Origin: a virus | Lineage: Duplodnaviria > Caudoviricetes | Direction: 5' to 3' (one strand) | Length of the DNA: 64,000 bases | Virus record (IMG/VR): IMGVR_UViG_3300039076_000082 | Location: 1-64,000 of that record | In this document: one piece after another, positions 26,824-37,403 of the stretch | How the letters are laid out: each line of letters opens with the position of its first letter | How positions within the stretch are numbered: position 1 is the stretch's first letter | Translations under genes and position numbers: made by a program | The notes under the pieces: model-generated | Told to the model about the DNA's origin: nothing | What the model saw: the letters and a program-made list of their open reading frames with translations, nothing else | Databases searched by the model: none

Positions 26824-27021
26824 ATGAATCTTCTTCAACTAAACAAAACACTCAAATCTACTCCGTATACTCTTCCTAAAGTAAACTACGACTTTTTACA
26901 AAAAGTAGTAATAAATTGTGGCAACTCCGATATTGCAATTACTGGAAGGCTGTGTTACGATCAGTATAAGTTAGCTAAAAAGCTATTACATAGAAATCTA
27001 TGTAAAACTAAAACAACATAG
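26824..27021 (+). CDS. Hypothetical protein
   Basis: 65 aa. Confidence 0.5.
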   Translation: MNLLQLNKTLKSTPYTLPKVNYDFLQKVVINCGNSDIAITGRLCYDQYKLAKKLLHRNLCKTKTT

Positions 27022-27358
27022 AAAACTATGTAAAAAGGTAGGAATATGAACAATTTAACGCAAAAACTTACAACTCAAAAAACTGGTCTAGTAGAGTATT
27101 TAAAGCTAAAAGTTCTACAAGAAGATTGGCATGCTGTAGCAGATGCATCTATGGACATTCGTGAAATTGAAGCTAAACTTCAGCTACTAAAACAATTAGA
27201 CGGAGACAGTAAATAATGGCACTTCAAAATATTCCAGACTACTCTATACTATTTGCAGTAGTATTCTGCGGAGGTTTGCTAGTAGGAGCTACAACAACAT
27301 TAATTATTACAAGCTTGTCGGAAGCTAGAGAACGAAAAAGAGATAGAAGGGAGTAGTT

Positions 27359-28387
27359 ATGAAAACAACTACTGAGCTACTCCGCTGGTTCTATAGCAAC
27401 TATCCTCGCTTAGTTGAGGAAATGAGAAACTGCGACCACAACTTATCCTACGATGAGCCCAATAGCTATCATTTAGAAGGCGATGTTTGGTGTCATGTTA
27501 TGATGATTCTGAAACAGATTCAACAAGCTAACTACTTGACTGATTATGATAAGTATATCTATTCAGTTATAGCTCTCTGTCACGATTTAGGGAAGCCTGA
27601 AGCGCGACAAATCAGAGACGGTAAAGTAACATTCTACAACCATGATGCTATTTCAGCATTTAAAGCTATCGAAGTACTAAATCACTTAGCACTTTCCCAA
27701 GAAGAAAAAGAAGTAATCTTTCAAACTATAGCTCACCATACTCAAGTATTCAGATTGACTCGTCAACAATTATTTGACAAGCTACTTGACGCTAAACTTA
27801 GAAATACTATAGAAACTTTTGGAGTATTCGACCATGATGGACGTTTTCATGATAATCAAGAAGTAGAAAAGTCTTATACTTTATGTGAAGATTTGGTAGT
27901 AAAATATAGCTCTCAGAACGCTCCTAAAACTGTTACTGTAATGGTAGGACTTCCTGCTAGTGGTAAATCTACTTATATTGAACAAAACGCTTCAGAAGGC
28001 TCGTTTATCGTATCTAGAGATAGGATTGTAGAAGACTTAGGAGACGGTATTACTTACTCTGAGAAGTGGTATAGTGCTAATCAAAAAGAAGTAGATGAAG
28101 TGCTTCAAGAAGTATTCAAGCAAGCCAAAAAAGAAAACGAAGTATTTGTCGATATGACCCATTTGAGTACTAAGTCTAGACGTAGAACTTTGTCGCATTT
28201 CGGTAAAGAGTGGAAGAAGAAGTGTGTGGTAGTACTACCAAGTTTGACCCAACTAACTAACAATAGCGAATATCGTAAAAATACTACTGGTAAATTTGTA
28301 TCGGATAGTGTAGTATTAGAAATGATGAGTAGGTTTAGCAGTCCTACTTATAGCGAAGGGTTCGATGAGATTGAGTGGAGATTTTAA
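27359..28387 (+). CDS. HD-Pnk end-healing enzyme (HD phosphoesterase + P-loop polynucleotide kinase)
   Basis: YHLEGDVWCH...CHDLGKP...FYNH; VMVGLPASGKST...SRD...VDMTH. Confidence 0.9.
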   Translation: MKTTTELLRWFYSNYPRLVEEMRNCDHNLSYDEPNSYHLEGDVWCHVMMILKQIQQANYLTDYDKYIYSVIALCHDLGKPEARQIRDGKVTFYNHDAISAFKAIEVLNHLALSQEEKEVIFQTIAHHTQVFRLTRQQLFDKLLDAKLRNTIETFGVFDHDGRFHDNQEVEKSYTLCEDLVVKYSSQNAPKTVTVMVGLPASGKSTYIEQNASEGSFIVSRDRIVEDLGDGITYSEKWYSANQKEVDEVLQEVFKQAKKENEVFVDMTHLSTKSRRRTLSHFGKEWKKKCVVVLPSLTQLTNNSEYRKNTTGKFVSDSVVLEMMSRFSSPTYSEGFDEIEWRF

Positions 28388-28419
28388 TATGGAAAAAAGT
28401 AAAACAAATAGTGGATTTA

Positions 28420-29031
28420 ATGCGTAGAATTGATCTAGTAGGGAAAAGAAAAGATAAGTTGGTGGTTATGTCTTTTTTAGAAAAGAGAGGAAAACATTTA
28501 TATTGGAAAGCGTTATGTGATTGTGGTAAGGAAAACAAAATATCTAGTACAAATTTTCTTCAAAAAGAAACTGCTTCGTGCGGTTGTACCAGAAATAAAA
28601 AAGCTAGCGATAGGTGGAAAGGTCAAAAAAGAAAAAATACACTACCTGAAGGAGAAGGATCATTATCTTGTTTAATAAATCAATATAAACAAGGGGCTAA
28701 ATTAAAAAATGTTCCTTTCTCTTTGAGTAGAGATGAATTTAGACAATTGACAAAAAGTAACTGTTACTACTGCGGAAGAAAACCGGAAAATATCATAAAA
28801 GGTAAAAGAAGTAATGGTGAATATGTCTATAATGGAATTGATCGCATAAATTCAGATTTAGGTTATTCATATTCTAATTGTGTTACATGTTGCGTTAAGT
28901 GTAATACATCAAAAATGGATTATTCTTTTTCAGAATTTATCAATTGGGCTGAAAAATTAGCAAATAATTTATTGAAAATGGGAGATATCCAATTAGATGA
29001 AGAAGTTTATTTAAAACTGGAAAAATTATAA
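28420..29031 (+). CDS. HNH homing-type endonuclease
   Basis: MRRIDLVGKR..LVV..W...CDCG; CYYCG...NGIDRINS..GYS.SNCVTCC..CN; ATG 28420 preferred over track GTG 28375. Confidence 0.88.
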   Translation: MRRIDLVGKRKDKLVVMSFLEKRGKHLYWKALCDCGKENKISSTNFLQKETASCGCTRNKKASDRWKGQKRKNTLPEGEGSLSCLINQYKQGAKLKNVPFSLSRDEFRQLTKSNCYYCGRKPENIIKGKRSNGEYVYNGIDRINSDLGYSYSNCVTCCVKCNTSKMDYSFSEFINWAEKLANNLLKMGDIQLDEEVYLKLEKL

Positions 29032-29039
29032 AAAGTATA

Positions 29040-29068
29040 TTGACAGAATAATATAAATAAAGTATTAT
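29040..29068 (+). promoter_or_regulatory. Strong sigma70-type promoter for the ncRNA-tRNA-ligase transcript
   Basis: TTGACA-17-TATTAT. Confidence 0.8.
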
Positions 29069-29074
29069 CAATTT

Positions 29075-29165
29075 GTCTAGGTAAGAATATGATTTAGATC
29101 GGATTCGAGCCAAAAGAGAAGTTAGAGTATTGAATCATTCTCGTAAACAATACTTCCACCTAGAC
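29075..29165 (+). ncRNA. Putative ~90-nt structured RNA
   Basis: Begins at the predicted TSS; GTCTAGGT/ACCTAGAC terminal stem, AGTATTG/CAATACT hairpin, GG-ATTCGAG-CC mini hairpin. Confidence 0.5.
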
Positions 29166-29175
29166 ATTTTATATA

Positions 29176-29250
29176 TCCGAGTTCGTTTATGTAGTAAGAC
29201 GGGAGATTGTGATTCTCCTCAAAAGGGTGCAAATCCCTTACTTGGAACCA
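29176..29250 (+). tRNA. tRNA, anticodon GUG (His), atypical acceptor end
   Basis: TCCGAGT/ACTTGGA acceptor, GTTT/AGAC D stem, GGAGA-TTGTGAT-TCTCC, AAGGG-TGCAAAT-CCCTT, encoded CCA. Confidence 0.85.
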
Positions 29251-29262
29251 TTAAGGAGCATT

Positions 29263-30429
29263 ATGTCATTTAAAACTTGTTTCACTAAAATCTTAGCAGT
29301 TAATCCTCATCCGGATACTGAGACTACAGGATTAGATATCGCAACAGTTTACGGATTTAACATTGTTGTGAAACGCGGATCAATGAAAGTTGGAGATATC
29401 GTTTACTATATCCCTATTGACTCAGTATTACCTCAAGATTTAGAAGAACTTATTTTTCCACCGACAGGGAAAGTAAAGTTATCAAATTCAAGAGTACGTC
29501 AAATTAGACTTCGTAAATTCCCATCGGAAGGTCTGTTAGTGGAAGCCGATACTATCCACTCCTTCATGGTAGCACAAAGAGCTTTACGCCCACAAATTAC
29601 TTCTAATGCGATGTTAGAGCAAGATACTAGCCATATTTTAGGTATTAAAAAATTTGAACCACCTGCTCCAAAAGAAACTATTTCAGGTAAACCTATTACT
29701 TCTAAAAAAAGATTAGCTGAACACCCTCAATTTCATAAGTATAATGGGTTAGATGCACTAAAATGGGGTAATCCTTTTACCGAAGACGAACAAGTATCTA
29801 TTCAACTCAAAATGCACGGAACAAATGCTAGATTTGGTAAATTAGCAACAAAACCCAAAAACCTATTTCAGCGTATTTTGAACCTACTTAAATTATTACC
29901 AGAGTATGAGACTAGATACGGTAGCAACAATGTGGATATTACTCTTAAAAACGGCGCTAGTGGGTTCTACGACACTGACGTATATGGTACGGCTTTTAAA
30001 GCTTGTAATGCTGATACTAAAGTAAAAGAGAATGAGATGATATTTGGAGAAATTGTAGGTGAAGGTATTCAGAAGAATTACCACTATGGACACAAGACTC
30101 CACATTTTGTATTATTTGATGTCAAAGTATTTACTGATAAAAACGATTTAAAAGGTCGTTGGTTAACTCCTTCAGAAGTAGAAATTTATGCTAAAGAAAG
30201 AGGATTTGAGATGGTTCCTGTGCTATATAAAGGCTTTTATGACAAAGCTACTATGGAATCATTGATCTCAGGAGTAGATCCTTATTACCCTCCACATAAA
30301 ATTAGAGAAGGTATTGTTATTAAATCTGAGAGTAACTATAATGATCCAATGAGTAGTGCTGGTAAGAAAGCTAGAAAGGTTATTTCACCAGAATACTTGG
30401 ATGATAAGTCAAATACCGATTTACACTAA
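29263..30429 (+). CDS. RNA ligase, DRB0094/Rnl5 family
   Basis: N-terminal OB module (HPD...VGD..YYIPIDSVLP), KMHGTN (motif I), FGEIVG, FVLFDV, REGIVIK; AAGGAG SD before ATG 29263. Confidence 0.92.
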   Translation: MSFKTCFTKILAVNPHPDTETTGLDIATVYGFNIVVKRGSMKVGDIVYYIPIDSVLPQDLEELIFPPTGKVKLSNSRVRQIRLRKFPSEGLLVEADTIHSFMVAQRALRPQITSNAMLEQDTSHILGIKKFEPPAPKETISGKPITSKKRLAEHPQFHKYNGLDALKWGNPFTEDEQVSIQLKMHGTNARFGKLATKPKNLFQRILNLLKLLPEYETRYGSNNVDITLKNGASGFYDTDVYGTAFKACNADTKVKENEMIFGEIVGEGIQKNYHYGHKTPHFVLFDVKVFTDKNDLKGRWLTPSEVEIYAKERGFEMVPVLYKGFYDKATMESLISGVDPYYPPHKIREGIVIKSESNYNDPMSSAGKKARKVISPEYLDDKSNTDLH

Positions 30430-30439
30430 AGGATCAACC

Positions 30440-30613
30440 ATGAGTGAAATTATTTTCCTAACAATTTTCCTATTAGTTCAACTATTTGCTATATTTATCG
30501 CTTTTACTTTCAGTAAAGTTATAGCAGGACTATTGACTTTAGTTTGTTTACCGTTTATAGTAGTTTACTTAGGAGTTATCCTAGATAGGGGAAATAATAA
30601 TGAAAACCGTTGA
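30440..30613 (+). CDS. Small membrane protein (2 TM)
   Basis: ATG 30440; hydrophobic. Confidence 0.55.
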   Translation: MSEIIFLTIFLLVQLFAIFIAFTFSKVIAGLLTLVCLPFIVVYLGVILDRGNNNENR

Positions 30614-30788
30614 CCAATACATAGAAATGTTACAATACTGCTTACCTTACGATAACAACGATATAGTAAAAGCTATTGAGTTCGGTAGACAATTAGCTCT
30701 ACTTGAGGTAAAGTCTAAGTTGACAGGAATGGTTGTAAACGGTACAGTTAAAGGTGTAGTTACTGAGGAGCAGTTGGAGAAGTTATGA
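30600..30788 (+). CDS. Hypothetical protein
   Basis: 62 aa. Confidence 0.5.
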   Translation: MKTVDQYIEMLQYCLPYDNNDIVKAIEFGRQLALLEVKSKLTGMVVNGTVKGVVTEEQLEKL

Positions 30789-30994
30789 TTTTACAAGATG
30801 AAGAACAGTGTTTAGACTTTTATATTAGAGAATTTGATAGAAGTAATTTCACTCACGTTAACGATACCAGTATTGGAGAAAGTGTATCTTATGTTATGTG
30901 CGAAGATATTTGTAATCTACTGAAAAAACTTAAAAATTCTAAACAAAAGATAAAAGAACTCGAAGAAGACTTATATTATTCTTATTACTTTTAG
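30785..30994 (+). CDS. Hypothetical protein
   Basis: 69 aa, ATGA overlap. Confidence 0.5.
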   Translation: MILQDEEQCLDFYIREFDRSNFTHVNDTSIGESVSYVMCEDICNLLKKLKNSKQKIKELEEDLYYSYYF

Positions 30995-30997
30995 TAT

Positions 30998-31288
30998 ATG
31001 AGCCTTAAATCTCCTTCCAAATACTACTCACTATCCTATCTCCTCCTAATCAAACAGAACAATTACTATCTCAACTACGACTTTCAGCCAGAAGAAGTAG
31101 ATGCACTTATTTGGCAGAAGCAACAAAAGCTGTTACCTAAGCCTCAAATAAATATAGAAGATATTACTTCAAAGCTTTGTACTAGCTGTAAGAAAGTGAA
31201 AGATTTAGTGGAGTTTGATAGGGACTCGTCGAAACTTTTGTTGAGACGATCACATTGTAAGAAATGTAGAAAAAGAGTTCCTTTTTAA
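30998..31288 (+). CDS. Hypothetical protein with endonuclease-associated Zn finger (CxxC..K...EF...CxxC)
   Basis: KLCTSCKKVKDLVEF...SHCKKC. Confidence 0.55.
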   Translation: MSLKSPSKYYSLSYLLLIKQNNYYLNYDFQPEEVDALIWQKQQKLLPKPQINIEDITSKLCTSCKKVKDLVEFDRDSSKLLLRRSHCKKCRKRVPF

Positions 31289-31300
31289 TTGGGAGAATTT

Positions 31301-31921
31301 ATGAAAAATATTAGCAATACTTTTGTTACTTCAGATTTACATTTCGGACATAAAGCGGTTATTGAATACTGTAATCGACCATTTAAAAGCCTAGAGGAAA
31401 TGGACGAAACTTTAATTAAAAACTGGAACAAGGTTGTTAAACCTATAGACAAAGTTTATGTATTGGGCGATTTCTTCATGTATCACAAAAAACCTAAGCT
31501 GAGAGAGATTATGTCTCGTTTAAACGGCACTAAGATTTTAGTACTAGGGAACCACGACATGAGCGATAGAGAGATGGAATCTATAGGATTCTCTTTTGTT
31601 TGTAGAAGTGCAACTATAAATTTAGCTAATGAATTAGTAAATTTGTCACATTTCCCATATAAAAGAAGTAAGTTATACTACCTATTTTGGGATACGCTAC
31701 ATAAACTATTTCCTAAACGATTTTTTAGACCGAGAAGATTTCATTATATGTTAGAGGATGATGGTAAGTACCTTCTACATGGGCACACGCATGGGAAAGA
31801 TAAAGTTACTGCTGGTAAAATGATTCATGTTGGTGTAGACGCTTGGAATTATACTCCTGTACCTTTACAAAAGATTGCGGATATTATCGGTAAGTTGAAA
31901 AAAGGTGAAATAATTAGTTGA
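31301..31921 (+). CDS. Calcineurin-like metallophosphoesterase
   Basis: SDLHFGH, LGDF, GNHD, SHFP, HGHTH. Confidence 0.92.
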   Translation: MKNISNTFVTSDLHFGHKAVIEYCNRPFKSLEEMDETLIKNWNKVVKPIDKVYVLGDFFMYHKKPKLREIMSRLNGTKILVLGNHDMSDREMESIGFSFVCRSATINLANELVNLSHFPYKRSKLYYLFWDTLHKLFPKRFFRPRRFHYMLEDDGKYLLHGHTHGKDKVTAGKMIHVGVDAWNYTPVPLQKIADIIGKLKKGEIIS

Positions 31922-31946
31922 CAATACTTTTTAGCTATTGTAAACT
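31918..31946 (+). promoter_or_regulatory. sigma70-type promoter for the ncRNA pair
   Basis: TTGACA-17-TAAACT. Confidence 0.75.
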
Positions 31947-31951
31947 ATATT

Positions 31952-32147
31952 TGAGCTAGCGATGTGGTAAGCTGAGAAAGTTGTTACAAGAGGTTCGATT
32001 CCTCGGGTACTAGATGGGTTCATAACAACAAGTAACTGGAGACACTTCCTTTGCCGGCACGACAAGAGTTCCTGCGAGTACCTTCAACAATCGTGTACTG
32101 GTTGGTACTTTAAATAGAAAAGTCAGAGTAGCGCCTGACCTAGCTCA
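31952..32147 (+). ncRNA. Putative ~196-nt structured RNA with tRNA T-arm
   Basis: TGAGCTAG/CTAGCTCA closure starting at the predicted TSS; GAGG-TTCGATT-CCTC; GTTGTTA/TAACAAC; GTCAG/CTGAC; GC-richer than flanks; no ORF. Confidence 0.7.
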
Positions 32148-32149
32148 TT

Positions 32150-32330
32150 ATTTAAAGGTTCTACTGTAAAATTTGATGATTAATAATTGGAGCTTTTCAT
32201 ATTGATGTTCAAGCTGGAAAGTAGCGCCTCTGACAATGCTGACTCAATATAATACTAGTCGAAAAGTAGGTGCGGTTCGCTTTATACCGCTTAATGAAAT
32301 GGATGATCAGCGTACCATTAGCCTTTAAAT
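32150..32330 (+). ncRNA. Putative ~180-nt structured RNA
   Basis: ATTTAAAGGTT/AGCCTTTAAAT closure; GCGGT/ACCGC, AATGG/CCATT, AGCTT/AAGCT hairpins. Confidence 0.6.
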
Positions 32331-32475
32331 CCTTTATTCGGAGATAATTATGATTACTTTAATTTTTGTGCTAATATACTACTATATACTCTTCAATAGT
32401 TCAACTACTGAAACAGATTTATATAAACAATATGACTATATCGGTATTTGTAAATCAAATCCTTGGGACTAACAA

Positions 32476-32940
32476 ATGACTAAACTTATACTAATACTAC
32501 TACTAACATTAGCACCACTATCTTACGCTAGTGCTCCTATTAACTATGCTTCAGGTATTGATCCTGCTTCTTTTGAAAAGCTCCATCCTAAACTTAAAGA
32601 TATTGCTTATTTTGTAGCATCATTTTGTCAACAGAACGGTATTAAGTTTGTAATTACTTCTACCATTAGAACAAAAGAAAGGAATCGTTTAGTTGGTGGA
32701 AAGAGCGAAACCCACACCTCCGGACGTGCGTTCGATTTCTCATTAAGAGAAGAATATGGTTGGACTGATGATAGGATCATGCTACTAGTTTATCAAATTG
32801 AGAGAAACTATAAAGAGTTTGGAGCTTACTCATTAAACGGAGGTAAGCAAGTAGTAATCTTTAATCATAGTGCAGAATCTGGTAAGGGGGGATTGTACCA
32901 TTCTCATATTCAAGTAAGAAGAGATTTACCGTGGAATTGA
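32476..32940 (+). CDS. Peptidase M15-family endolysin with N-terminal signal peptide
   Basis: ITSTIRT, SxHxxGxAxD (SETHTSGRAFD), HSHIQ; MTKLILILLLTLAPLSYA-S. Confidence 0.85.
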   Translation: MTKLILILLLTLAPLSYASAPINYASGIDPASFEKLHPKLKDIAYFVASFCQQNGIKFVITSTIRTKERNRLVGGKSETHTSGRAFDFSLREEYGWTDDRIMLLVYQIERNYKEFGAYSLNGGKQVVIFNHSAESGKGGLYHSHIQVRRDLPWN

Positions 32941-32943
32941 TTA

Positions 32944-33855
32944 ATGAAGAATAAATACCAAGATAGAATAGGATCTATTATTAGAGGTTGTCTAGTATTA
33001 GAATGTTTTAAAAAAGACAATATACAAAATCCTTATTTTAAAGTAAAATGCAAATGTGGTAATATTTTTACAATAGCTAGTACTACTTTATGTAATAAAG
33101 CTTATTCAAATAAAGATTCTAATTGTGGGTGTATTGTTAGAGTAACGTCTAATGGTAAAAAAGATGGTAGGATAATTCCTGAGAATAATATAGGTAAAAC
33201 AATTAGACAATGTAAAATATTAAGCTATATTCCTAATTTACAAAAACCAAAAGATAAAAGTTCAGGTAAATATGAGTGCGTTTGTACTTGTGGAAATACT
33301 TTTATTATCTCTCATAGTCATTTATTTAAAAAGCAATTAAAGAACATTAGAGCTAATTGCGGATGCTTCAGAGAAGAGCCGAAAGAATACAAAAGAGAGT
33401 ACGATTCTGCAACATATCATAGACTTTATCAACATAAAAAATATACTACCATTCGTAGAAATTTAGAATTTTCTTTATCTGAAGAACAATTCATTAATAT
33501 ATCAAAAAAGCCGTGCATATATTGTGAAAAAGTGACATTAAGGAACTCTTATATAAAAGTAGAGGATACCTTTGGTTCCAATAAAGGAAAAACTGGAGAA
33601 TTAATTCTTAGTAATATAAAGGGAGATAGATTAAAGAATGTAGATAAGTATACTGTACCATGTTCAGGTATAGATAGAATAGATAATAGTAAAGGGTATA
33701 TAGTAGATAATTGTGTACCATGTTGCACTTATTGTAACACCATAAAAGGTACTAGAACTGTTGAAGAGTTTTACAAAAGAGTAGAAGATCTTGCACCAAC
33801 TCATGAACAGTGTGCTAAAATCTTATCAGTCAAAAGAAAACGTGAGAAAAAATAA
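32944..33855 (+). CDS. HNH homing-type endonuclease with duplicated CxCG N-terminal modules
   Basis: CKCGN / CTCGN; CIYC...GIDRIDNSKGY..DNCVPCC..CN..K. Confidence 0.88.
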   Translation: MKNKYQDRIGSIIRGCLVLECFKKDNIQNPYFKVKCKCGNIFTIASTTLCNKAYSNKDSNCGCIVRVTSNGKKDGRIIPENNIGKTIRQCKILSYIPNLQKPKDKSSGKYECVCTCGNTFIISHSHLFKKQLKNIRANCGCFREEPKEYKREYDSATYHRLYQHKKYTTIRRNLEFSLSEEQFINISKKPCIYCEKVTLRNSYIKVEDTFGSNKGKTGELILSNIKGDRLKNVDKYTVPCSGIDRIDNSKGYIVDNCVPCCTYCNTIKGTRTVEEFYKRVEDLAPTHEQCAKILSVKRKREKK

Positions 33856-36524: not shown

Positions 36525-37403
36525 GTGGAAAATAAGTACTTAGAAAAAGGACAATCTCTCATATTACCATTTGGTATATTTACTGCTCCTATTTCTGGAA
36601 ATTACTCTATACATGAAGATTCTTGTTTATACAATCCTTCTTATATAAATATTTTTAATATAGTAAAAAGTAGCATTACAATAGATAGCAGTAAACTTGA
36701 AGGCTACTATACTAGTATTCCTAAACAACTAGACCAAGTACTTGAATACGTGAAAGATCGTTATAAACTTAACAATGATACTGCTAATAAACTCTATATA
36801 GCTGGTGGAGCGATTCGTAGTTTAATTTTAAACGAAGAAGTCAAAGATTACGATATCTTTATTGAGAATGACGAAGTAAAAACGCTTCTACTAGAAGAAT
36901 CTAAAACCAAATGTAATGGTTCTTATATCTCAGATAACGCTATTACTTTATACTCTCCTTATGGTCAGATTCAAATTATTACGACTAAAACTGGCTTTCC
37001 TTGGGAAGTAATTGATGAGTTTGACTTTGTAATGAATCAGAACTACTACTGTCCTAATCTAACAGTAGCAGGAGTTTGTGATGGGTTGTATATTGCCGAT
37101 ATTGATACTGTAATGAGTAAGAAGCTCAAGATAAATAAACATTGTCGTAACAAGCTCGGAACACTAGCTAGATTAGCTAAGTTTTTAGAACGTGGCTACT
37201 TACCTCCAAATAAGTTGGACTTAGTAGAGTTAGGAATAGCTATTTCAAAACTTAATCCAATTACTACCTTGACAGAATTAGCTTCCGAGAGTAAATTGTA
37301 CTTGAATGCGGAAGAAGTTTCAGGTCTATGTGATGGGACTACTTTAGCATTTTGTAGTGACGAAGAGATAGATAGTTTAAATAATAGAGGGAGTGGGTTA
37401 TGA
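36525..37403 (+). CDS. CCA-adding/poly(A)-polymerase-head-like nucleotidyltransferase
   Basis: IAGGAIRSLIL..VKDYDIF; IQII; FDF; R..KF..RGY. Confidence 0.75.
   Translation: MENKYLEKGQSLILPFGIFTAPISGNYSIHEDSCLYNPSYINIFNIVKSSITIDSSKLEGYYTSIPKQLDQVLEYVKDRYKLNNDTANKLYIAGGAIRSLILNEEVKDYDIFIENDEVKTLLLEESKTKCNGSYISDNAITLYSPYGQIQIITTKTGFPWEVIDEFDFVMNQNYYCPNLTVAGVCDGLYIADIDTVMSKKLKINKHCRNKLGTLARLAKFLERGYLPPNKLDLVELGIAISKLNPITTLTELASESKLYLNAEEVSGLCDGTTLAFCSDEEIDSLNNRGSGL

Follow-up and report, generated by a model that had tools for sequence, protein, structure and literature searches.

RNA-repair genes, an atypical tRNA-His and candidate tRNA-shaped RNAs as separable neighbours in the genome of an uncultured phage

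We analysed the first 64,000 nucleotides (nt) of the virus record IMGVR_UViG_3300039076_000082 (Duplodnaviria; Caudoviricetes). We call this stretch the window; the IMG/VR record from which it comes is complete, measures 84,955 bp and has a G+C content (GC) of 33.0%. Cultured phages are not close to it, and its family-B DNA polymerase is at most 26% identical to that of any deposited phage. The region under study encodes two RNA-repair enzymes, a tRNA-His, a metallophosphoesterase and candidate small RNAs, and every gene concerned is on the + strand. The HD-Pnk gene is followed by an HNH open reading frame (ORF; 28375-29031), a gap of 231 nt (29032-29262) and the ligase gene; after the ligase come four small ORFs, the metallophosphoesterase gene, a gap of 428 nt (31922-32349), a 40-codon ORF, an M15 peptidase gene and a second HNH-family gene. 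Both gaps, which bear the candidate RNAs, belong to the ten ORF-free stretches of at least 120 nt in the genome. Loci of relatives are referred to by number (L003, L087, etc.). The main features are:

27359-28387, + strand: HD-Pnk end-healing enzyme, 342 aa; Pfam HD (residues 47-132) and AAA_33 (192-329)
28375-29031, + strand: HNH endonuclease gene, start uncertain; PHROG endonuclease VII and HNH families, E 1e-16 to 1e-9
29040-29068, + strand: promoter P1, sigma-70-type, TTGACA/17 nt/TATTAT; 11/12 matches, the best in 27000-33000
29074-29166, + strand: RNA1, candidate leader or stable RNA; 9-bp terminal stem from the predicted transcription start
29176-29250, + strand: tRNA-His(GUG) with encoded CCA (ARAGORN; Rfam tRNA, 42.3 bits); perfect 7-bp acceptor stem
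29263-30429, + strand: ATP-dependent RNA ligase, DRB0094/Rnl5 type; PF21189 OB (residues 8-93) and PF09414 (177-359)
31301-31921, + strand: metallophosphoesterase; PF00149, phrog_547; metal-binding motifs kept
31918-31946, + strand: promoter P2, TTGACA/17 nt/TAAACT; 10/12 matches; homologous promoters in L087, L088 and L089
31953-32147, + strand: RNA2, candidate RNA of about 195 nt, GC-rich; 7-8-bp acceptor-like terminal stem, 5-bp hairpin just before the 3' strand
32187-32335, + strand: RNA3, conserved leader-like RNA; blocks 32187-32196, 32261-32271 and 32322-32335; homologues in L088 and L089

The first enzyme matches phrog_6931 over its full length, and the HD and Walker A motifs are visible in its translation. 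Its HD part resembles the HD domain of CCA enzymes and its kinase part resembles PNKP (PNK-3'Pase similarity). It thus consists of an N-terminal HD phosphoesterase and a C-terminal P-loop 5'-OH polynucleotide kinase, the domain order of the HD-Pnk of Runella (PMC6097658). Among NCBIfam models the ligase scores highest on TIGR02306 (RNA_lig_DRB0094), with 126.5 bits over its full length, under the equivalog cut-off of 151; the nearest solved structure in the PDB is Naegleria Rnl5, and the residues K183-x-H185-G186 are invariant across 39 relatives. By these sequence marks it belongs to the Rnl5/DRB0094 type. An earlier model-made reading of this DNA (the original prediction) had named both enzymes so; the Pfam, TIGR02306 and Naegleria Rnl5 matches bear it out, and the metallophosphoesterase that it placed after the ligase is likewise found (PF00149, phrog_547). 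Judging from their families, HD-Pnk and ligase form a heal-and-seal pair to which the phosphoesterase is probably joined. The phosphoesterase is probably part of the repair module because its homologues lie repeatedly close to ligases: a Rnl1-type enzyme in L070, a Rnl5 remnant in L067, and a Rnl5 about 2.5 kb downstream in L005.

Two side observations concern the ligase and its surroundings. L067:3943-5888 holds an IS605-type TnpB gene and, just before the phosphoesterase, what remains of a ligase: 31 residues with 81% identity to the C-terminus of the window ligase; the repair ligase has been lost there. At three loci (L006:1813-1950, L009:7150-7289, L005:6153-6312) the ligase stop codon is immediately followed by a consensus promoter, then by ~100 nt of structured RNA and by a U-tract resembling a terminator; the element is upstream of a family-B DNA polymerase gene, which follows directly in L006 and L009 and after small ORFs in L005. 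The RNAs of L006 and L009 have a motif in common, and the element may be a polymerase leader or operator, or a small RNA.

The original prediction had the two enzymes flanking a promoter. A promoter-like site is present, but an HNH ORF overlooked at that time (28375-29031) stands between HD-Pnk and this site. The ORF, of 218 codons, has the lowest GC of the region (28.8%), and its homologues adjoin ligase genes in L006, L010 and L070. In the closest relative by ligase (L003/L004, 88% identical), HD-Pnk is 78% identical and is followed by a 133-nt spacer with a small ORF, then by the ligase; no HNH gene, RNA1 or tRNA lies between the two. Because this relative has the enzymes without those parts, the HNH gene, the promoter, RNA1 and tRNA-His are, on a comparison of sequences, an insertion of ~875 nt between the two enzymes. 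The cassette now puts tRNA-His and the ligase in one predicted transcript.

The GUG tRNA of the original prediction is confirmed by ARAGORN and Rfam, and the 84,955-bp genome has no other tRNA. Since bacteria normally have one tRNA-His isoacceptor, the choice of anticodon does not explain its presence in the phage. The sequence is atypical: it has A at -1, A73, U1-A72, and A18/G55 where G18/U55 is usual, the last being, as read from the sequence, a two-sided change of the elbow contact. In bacterial tRNA-His an encoded G-1 opposite C73 is normal, and both are major identity elements for histidyl-tRNA synthetase (PMC3064791, PMC4338351). The phage gene has the GUG anticodon, but A at -1 and the discriminator A73. 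A rare group of alphaproteobacterial tRNA-His is devoid of G-1 and has A73, G1-U72 and a 9-nt D-loop (PMC3064791); the window tRNA matches this type only in part, with A73, no G-1 and a 9-nt D-loop but with U1-A72. Thg1, the enzyme of G-1 addition, was looked for and is not encoded.

The proximity of tRNA-His and ligase is not confined to the window. The ribosome-binding site (RBS) of the window ligase begins 4 nt past the CCA of tRNA-His. L009, whose ligase is 62% identical, has a tRNA-His(GUG) at the corresponding site; A73 recurs in it, and the RBS stands 5 nt past its ACCA end. Of 57 other loci with this ligase family, 15 have a tRNA within 3.5 kb; in L064, L055 and L038 the ligase ORF has a tRNA or tRNA-like gene immediately beside it. 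As a separate observation, an unusual T-loop, UGCAA(A/G/U)U with G55, is found at 29233-29239 of the window, L055:2060-2066, L089:7303-7309 and about 4709-4715 of L038; it recurs in tRNAs or tRNA-like RNAs of unrelated phages bearing this ligase family. In two tRNA-His genes (window and L055) the G55 T-loop is paired with A18, and the T-loop of L089-A, an RNA described below, shares it.

Promoters were sought in 27000-33000 by scoring 12 positions of the sigma-70 consensus, and P1 and P2 are defined by consensus match only. RNA1, the structured RNA of ~90 nt that the original prediction placed behind the first promoter and counted among its tRNA mimics, retains its 9-bp terminal stem and a modest folding signal (minimum free energy (MFE) z -2.39; 4 of 200 shuffles fold as well), but has no homologue and is not tRNA-like. 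It ends 7-9 nt upstream of tRNA-His, and its GC (34.7%) shows no enrichment over the genome. Its TTCGA word lies in a predicted stem and not in a T-loop, and the acceptor-plus-T-arm layout is not found in it by the promoter-anchored test described below. No homologue appeared with blastn or nhmmer against more than 60 ligase loci, nor in the relatives that bear the second RNA island. RNA1 may, on weak support, be a leader released by RNase P.

The second gap opens with P2, a consensus-like promoter that the original prediction had located correctly before RNA2. Relatives with a comparable island (L087, L088 and L089) were reached only via the downstream M15 peptidase gene, not via ligase or phosphoesterase. 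The neighbouring genes that anchor the comparison are:

30998-31288, + strand: 96-aa Zn-ribbon ORF; weak PHROG Lar-like and HNH zinc-finger matches
32476-32940, + strand: M15 peptidase, PF08291; syntenic in L087 and L089
32944-33855, + strand: second HNH-family gene, 303 aa; PHROG HNH families

The sequence of the P2 spacer aligns with the promoters of all three relatives. In L087 and L089 the homologous promoter comes directly after the stop codon of the 30998-31288 homologue (63-70% identical), which abuts it; in the window the phosphoesterase gene intervenes between this ORF and P2; L088 has the homologous promoter and no detectable homologue of the ORF. What follows the promoter is wholly different in sequence from one phage to the next, the first RNA being shortest in L087 (58 nt), longer in L088 (81 nt) and L089 (103 nt) and longest in the window (RNA2, 194 nt). 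In all four loci, nevertheless, the RNA begins 5-10 nt past the -10 element with a 7-bp helix that pairs its 5' and 3' ends, and a 5-bp hairpin with a 7-9-nt loop stands directly before the 3' strand, i.e. the arrangement of acceptor stem and T-arm in a tRNA. This "top half" (7-bp end helix plus 5-bp hairpin 5' of the 3' strand) is thus found in RNA2 and in the first RNAs of L087, L088 and L089. A scan of the whole genome for the layout is uninformative (177 matches vs 101-144 in shuffles), and the test was therefore anchored to the position set by the promoter; there, 9-15 of 3000 shuffles per locus show the layout (0.3-0.5%). The five acceptor-like stems are perfect 7-bp helices with no common sequence, which means that both strands have changed and pairing has been retained.

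RNA2 itself has its 5' end at the predicted transcription start, a discriminator-like A, a GC of 46.2% (vs 33.0% for the genome) and an internal canonical T-arm hairpin (31990-32004). The original prediction had given all three RNAs TTCGA or GGTTCG loops; the words are in the sequence, but a true T-arm hairpin exists only in RNA2, where it is internal and not by the 3' end. Likewise, of the tRNA mimics proposed, RNA2 stands, set at a syntenic promoter, while RNA1 and RNA3 are not tRNA-like. The 3' third of RNA2 aligns with the 5' half of L088-A, with an 8-nt loop motif in common. Among the relatives' RNAs, L089-A and L088-A both have a cloverleaf as MFE fold. The cloverleaf of L089-A is class-II-like: its variable arm has 8 bp, its T-loop 7 nt, and the loop of its "anticodon" arm, 17 nt long, folds into a further small hairpin; in L088-A a loop of 3-5 nt caps the "anticodon" arm. 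L087-B, the second RNA of L087, scores 19.9 bits on the tRNA-Sec model and has an ACCA end just before an RBS; L089-A gives a partial tRNA match, also of 19.9 bits. As judged from sequence and predicted folds, the island RNAs are tRNA-shaped and unable to decode, with no usable anticodon loop, and RNA2 is their largest and most derived member.

The database searches agree that these are not ordinary tRNAs. ARAGORN calls none of RNA2, RNA3 and the relatives' RNAs, and none reaches the Rfam threshold. The Rfam scan contemplated in the original prediction returned no family for RNA1, RNA2 or RNA3, tRNA-His alone being matched; within 28900-32500 none of the three RNAs matches RF00005 at E up to 10. 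At gathering score no Rfam family is found across the whole window, a threshold at which even the 42-bit tRNA is missed. A search of 28900-32500 and of the relatives' islands, up to an E of 10, showed nothing that relates to YrlA, Y RNA, tmRNA, tLRNA motifs, GOLLD or ROOL. Sequence searches with RNA1, RNA2 and RNA3 (blastn and nhmmer, more than 60 ligase loci) yielded chance matches only; of the pattern scans in IMG/VR, one gave no match and two gave chance matches only, and a pattern run on JGI metagenomes gave two bacterial chance matches. RNA2 was also considered as a circularly permuted tRNA or a tRNA within a tRNA: by eye no consistent cloverleaf emerges, and its interior has no homologues.

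Could RNA2 and its relatives be interrupted or rearranged tRNA precursors, which HD-Pnk and ligase would rejoin into a working tRNA? The chemistry of heal-and-seal repair matches that of tRNA splicing, which we count in favour of this idea; the anticodon loop in the class-II-like cloverleaf of L089-A has 10 nt more than usual, and the canonical T-arm of RNA2 is followed by a strand able to pair with a downstream segment. But removal of any single segment of RNA2 yields no canonical tRNA, and L088 has the RNA without repair genes nearby; neither ARAGORN nor Rfam, even at E up to 10, finds a tRNA at RNA2 or in the L088 island. We hold phage tRNA splicing to be a very improbable explanation.

A different question is whether the islands are functional at all, or are remnants of a tRNA cluster shuffled by homing endonucleases, i.e. 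decaying tRNA genes and insertion scars. As the gene at 32944-33855 is a second HNH gene, both RNA islands are flanked by HNH genes, as in the tRNA region of T5. The content of the islands varies in every relative, RNA2 looks mosaic because of its alignment with L088-A, and the MFE z-scores are unremarkable. Against decay stand the five perfect 7-bp acceptor-like stems of different sequence lying exactly at the predicted start site, the conserved promoter, the strong GC enrichment of RNA2, and the blocks of RNA3, which are kept across three phages whose M15 peptidases are 65-73% identical. We regard a loss of function as improbable. Two observations on neighbouring genes may be recorded here: the 32944-33855 protein is distantly related to that of the 28375-29031 ORF, with ~62% identity kept in L087 and L089, and upstream of its RNA island L088 has a 515-aa gene (L088:4547-6094) with faint intein and LAGLIDADG signals in Pfam.

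RNA3, which the original prediction delimited as a second structured RNA of ~190 nt behind P2, is indeed a candidate conserved in sequence blocks, over ~150 nt (32187-32335) and not the whole length proposed. Its last block is preceded by a 5-bp covarying hairpin (32297-32318) whose sequence differs in each of three phages; the hairpin loop, of ~12 nt, is beyond the 7-9 nt allowed for the top half. The consensus fold of the three homologues is weak (RNAalifold, -3.3 kcal/mol). Terminal stems had been claimed for all three RNAs: inverted repeats are present in each, but the 9-bp closing stem of RNA3 (32150-32158/32322-32330) is without counterpart in its two homologues, L088 and L089. In three phages the first block has GGAG followed 11-12 nt on by an ATG, which opens an ORF of 8-15 codons with no conserved peptide; RNA3 is therefore possibly a leader with a short upstream ORF. 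L087 has no RNA3, and L087-B sits at that position, its 3' end loosely aligned with the last RNA3 block. The two small ORFs of this stretch are:

from 32205, + strand: possible short upstream ORF within RNA3
from 32350, + strand: 40-aa ORF, first gene after RNA3

The original prediction went beyond the parts and proposed one system, an anti-defence ribonucleoprotein (RNP) in which the three RNAs and the tRNA would serve HD-Pnk and ligase as decoys or scaffolds, in physical contact with them. In the window the parts do lie near one another (HD-Pnk, Rnl5-type ligase, and the island 1.5 kb downstream of it), tRNA genes are enriched near this ligase family, and the pairing recurs in L089, which has an HD-Pnk 73% identical to that of the window, a ligase, and an island 1.3 kb downstream. 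Co-occurrence stops there: L088 has the island, yet neither HD-Pnk nor ligase is encoded in the 8 kb to each side of it; in L066, the closest relative by phosphoesterase (83% identical), a gene follows the phosphoesterase directly and no RNA island is present; and none of the relatives found through ligase or phosphoesterase has an island. Because L003/L004, L066 and L088 hold the parts separately, the RNAs and the repair enzymes are, on the gene orders compared, neighbours in some genomes that are inherited independently. Moreover, the ligase partner in L089 and in L070 is of the Rnl1 family, hence no specific co-evolution, RNA1 and RNA3 are not tRNA-like, and no Ro-like RNA-binding partner is encoded: TROVE/Ro (PF05731) was not found in the complete 85-kb genome at E up to 1, at which positive controls were detected. 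A single co-inherited system is thus not supported, a joint RNP has little chance of being right, and a Y-RNA/Ro reading was rejected on the absence of a TROVE gene from the whole genome.

We tentatively favour another interpretation, in which the region would be a phage "tRNA region" in the style of T5 and T4, arranged around an RNA-repair module and holding three separable tools (repair, replacement and mimicry) instead of one RNP system. HD-Pnk and ligase would repair broken tRNA, and the odd tRNA-His would replace a tRNA that is targeted. About 1.5 kb downstream, a promoter hot-spot would drive a fast-evolving tRNA-shaped RNA, RNA2 in the window, then RNA3 and the genes that follow. RNase P and the enzymes that trim 3' ends recognise the acceptor/T-arm half of their substrates; because of this, cuts by the corresponding host enzymes are predicted, which would free both the tRNA and the tRNA-shaped RNA from their transcripts. 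The same cutting would determine at which 5' end the ligase mRNA and the mRNA downstream of RNA3 begin. Once released, the RNA without anticodon may pass for a tRNA and, in trans, keep a tRNA-binding host factor occupied.

The main rival to this three-tool arrangement, which we rate as rather unlikely, keeps the cutting and drops the trans action: the elements would be cis-acting punctuation only, i.e. processing or stability signals at which RNase P and RNase Z cut the 5' ends of mRNAs, the released RNAs being idle. Several features speak for it. The elements are promoter-proximal and are followed by genes in the same direction without a terminator; at three sites (tRNA-His of the window, tRNA-His of L009, and L087-B) an ACCA end is followed within 4-6 nt by RBS and start codon, and the same ACCA-RBS arrangement occurs in L064 and L010; the part that is kept is just the top half read by RNase P and RNase Z. 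Mere punctuation, on the other hand, would not call for the rapid turnover of length (58 to 195 nt) and content seen at one site with perfect stems, nor for an RNA as large as RNA2, which far exceeds the size needed, and such elements are absent from the closest relatives, which express the same genes.

A narrower alternative goes further in the other direction: the anticodon-less RNAs would be trans-acting counter-defence decoys or inhibitors of host nucleases that read the tRNA body or tail, alongside the repair enzymes and a cleavage-resistant tRNA-His. We hold this to be distinctly unlikely, and still rarer would be its variant in which the island RNAs are precursors rejoined by the phage ligase.

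The interpretation as three separable tools has itself several results against it. The evidence does not separate a trans role as decoy from a purely cis role in processing. The island is present in only four loci, too few for formal covariation statistics, and it is linked to repair genes in two of the three loci that can be judged. The interior of RNA2 (~150 nt) has no homologue, and its whole fold is no better than that of shuffled sequences (z -0.06); the same holds for the MFE of RNA3 (z -0.8). Promoter-like matches are frequent in AT-rich DNA (31 found vs 22 expected). As for replacement, tRNA-His may simply suit a host whose own tRNA-His is devoid of G-1, its U1-A72 nevertheless departing from the G1-U72 of the group described in PMC3064791.

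Phage T5 offers the closest parallel. Its tRNA region (NC_005859, 29.4-32.0 kb) contains in order of transcription RNA1, RNAI, RNAIII, tRNA-His(GUG), a small ORF and the HNH gene hegD. T5 RNA1 (144 nt) is annotated as "tRNA-like stable RNA with unknown functions"; RNAI and RNAIII measure 107 and 106 nt. As in the window, small stable RNAs with terminal stems precede tRNA-His(GUG), and HNH genes (hegC and hegD) are adjacent. Like the RNA2 family, T5 RNA1 combines an acceptor-like stem with a hairpin in front of the 3' strand, here a T-arm that immediately precedes it; RNAI has a terminal helix and a GCCA end; RNAIII, with a 12-bp terminal stem, abuts tRNA-His, so that the RNA1 of the window is its positional analogue. 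T5 differs in that its tRNA-His has C73 and a standard T-loop and is one of many tRNAs, versus a single one here; between the RNAs of the two phages, which were compared by reading only, no sequence similarity is visible by eye. We know of no HD-Pnk/RNA-ligase pair beside the T5 stable RNAs (29.5-32.0 kb inspected).

In T4 the stable RNAs and the repair genes are not known to be adjacent. T4 RNA C and RNA D (species 1 and 2) are stable RNAs transcribed with the phage tRNAs, and their roles are unexplained (PMC3014915). T4 also has a heal-and-seal pair, Pnkp and Rnl1, which counters the anticodon nuclease PrrC (PMC3014915, PMC2610378); its enzymes belong to other families than the HD-Pnk and Rnl5 of the window. 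The window is a new instance of the unexplained RNAs of T4/T5 type, with no sequence similarity to those of T5 visible by eye and next to a heal-and-seal pair.

For the enzymes the nearest counterparts are cellular. In Runella slithyformis and in the DRB0094 region of Deinococcus radiodurans HD-Pnk is encoded beside an ATP-dependent ligase, as in the window (PMC6097658). No tRNA or small RNA is described beside those clusters, whereas the window pair is phage-borne and interrupted by an HNH gene and a tRNA. The Runella ligase failed to seal standard substrates (PMC6097658).

With regard to the RNAs, phage tRNAs rescue infection from defences that cut tRNA (PMC10264068, PMC11555353); the demonstrated cases, T5 tRNA-Tyr against PtuAB of retron Eco7 and anticodon-loop variants, are decoding tRNAs. 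By analogy with these evading tRNAs, an atypical tRNA-His, of an isotype with one host isoacceptor, would fit a role in replacement. We found no published case of an anticodon-less tRNA mimic that evades tRNA-targeting defences. A further comparison is with YrlA, a non-decoding RNA that carries a tRNA-like module and is sometimes found near the RNA-repair genes rtcBA. YrlA and Y RNA, with Ro60/Rsr, differ in topology: here the 5' and 3' ends of the RNA form the acceptor stem, as in a tRNA.

T4 and T5 have for decades had stable tRNA-like RNAs without an assigned function. The present loci, from a small clade of uncultured phages, add an unannotated set of RNAs behind a conserved promoter, a set that evolves fast and keeps the part read by processing enzymes and by many tRNA-binding proteins; in the window this set lies within 1.5 kb of tRNA-repair enzymes and of a single atypical tRNA. 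If the anticodon-less RNAs were decoys after all, a function would be given to stable phage RNAs that have lacked one since T4 and T5. Recently discovered bacterial defences include many that cut tRNA, and the region allows a concrete and cheap test of decoy versus processing signal. RNAs and repair enzymes are seen to move independently of each other, and this speaks against viewing the region as a single system.

A few observations concern other parts of the genome. At 36525-37403 is encoded a 292-aa protein with a PolyA_pol (class II nucleotidyltransferase) head that matches generic nucleotidyltransferase families; it is kept with 49-69% identity in all three island-bearing relatives, where the precomputed Pfam label is Gad2. 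A clear CCA-adding enzyme was not found, this protein, the sole one with a PolyA_pol head, being too divergent for that call. Beyond the window two further ORF-free islands exist, at about 78,530-79,150 and 83,260-83,770 (genome coordinates), and neither has sequence in common with RNA1, RNA2 or RNA3. In the second, consensus promoters occur at 83,658 and 83,569 of the minus strand, and the sequences downstream of the two are similar. Finally, near-identical strong promoters, with TTGACA and a conserved spacer ending in TGCGTTATAAT or a close variant, stand at 1540, 2325, 4308 and 4994 of the window and at 83,978 of the genome. P1 and P2 are without the extended pattern of this family, whose members are probably the early promoters of the phage.

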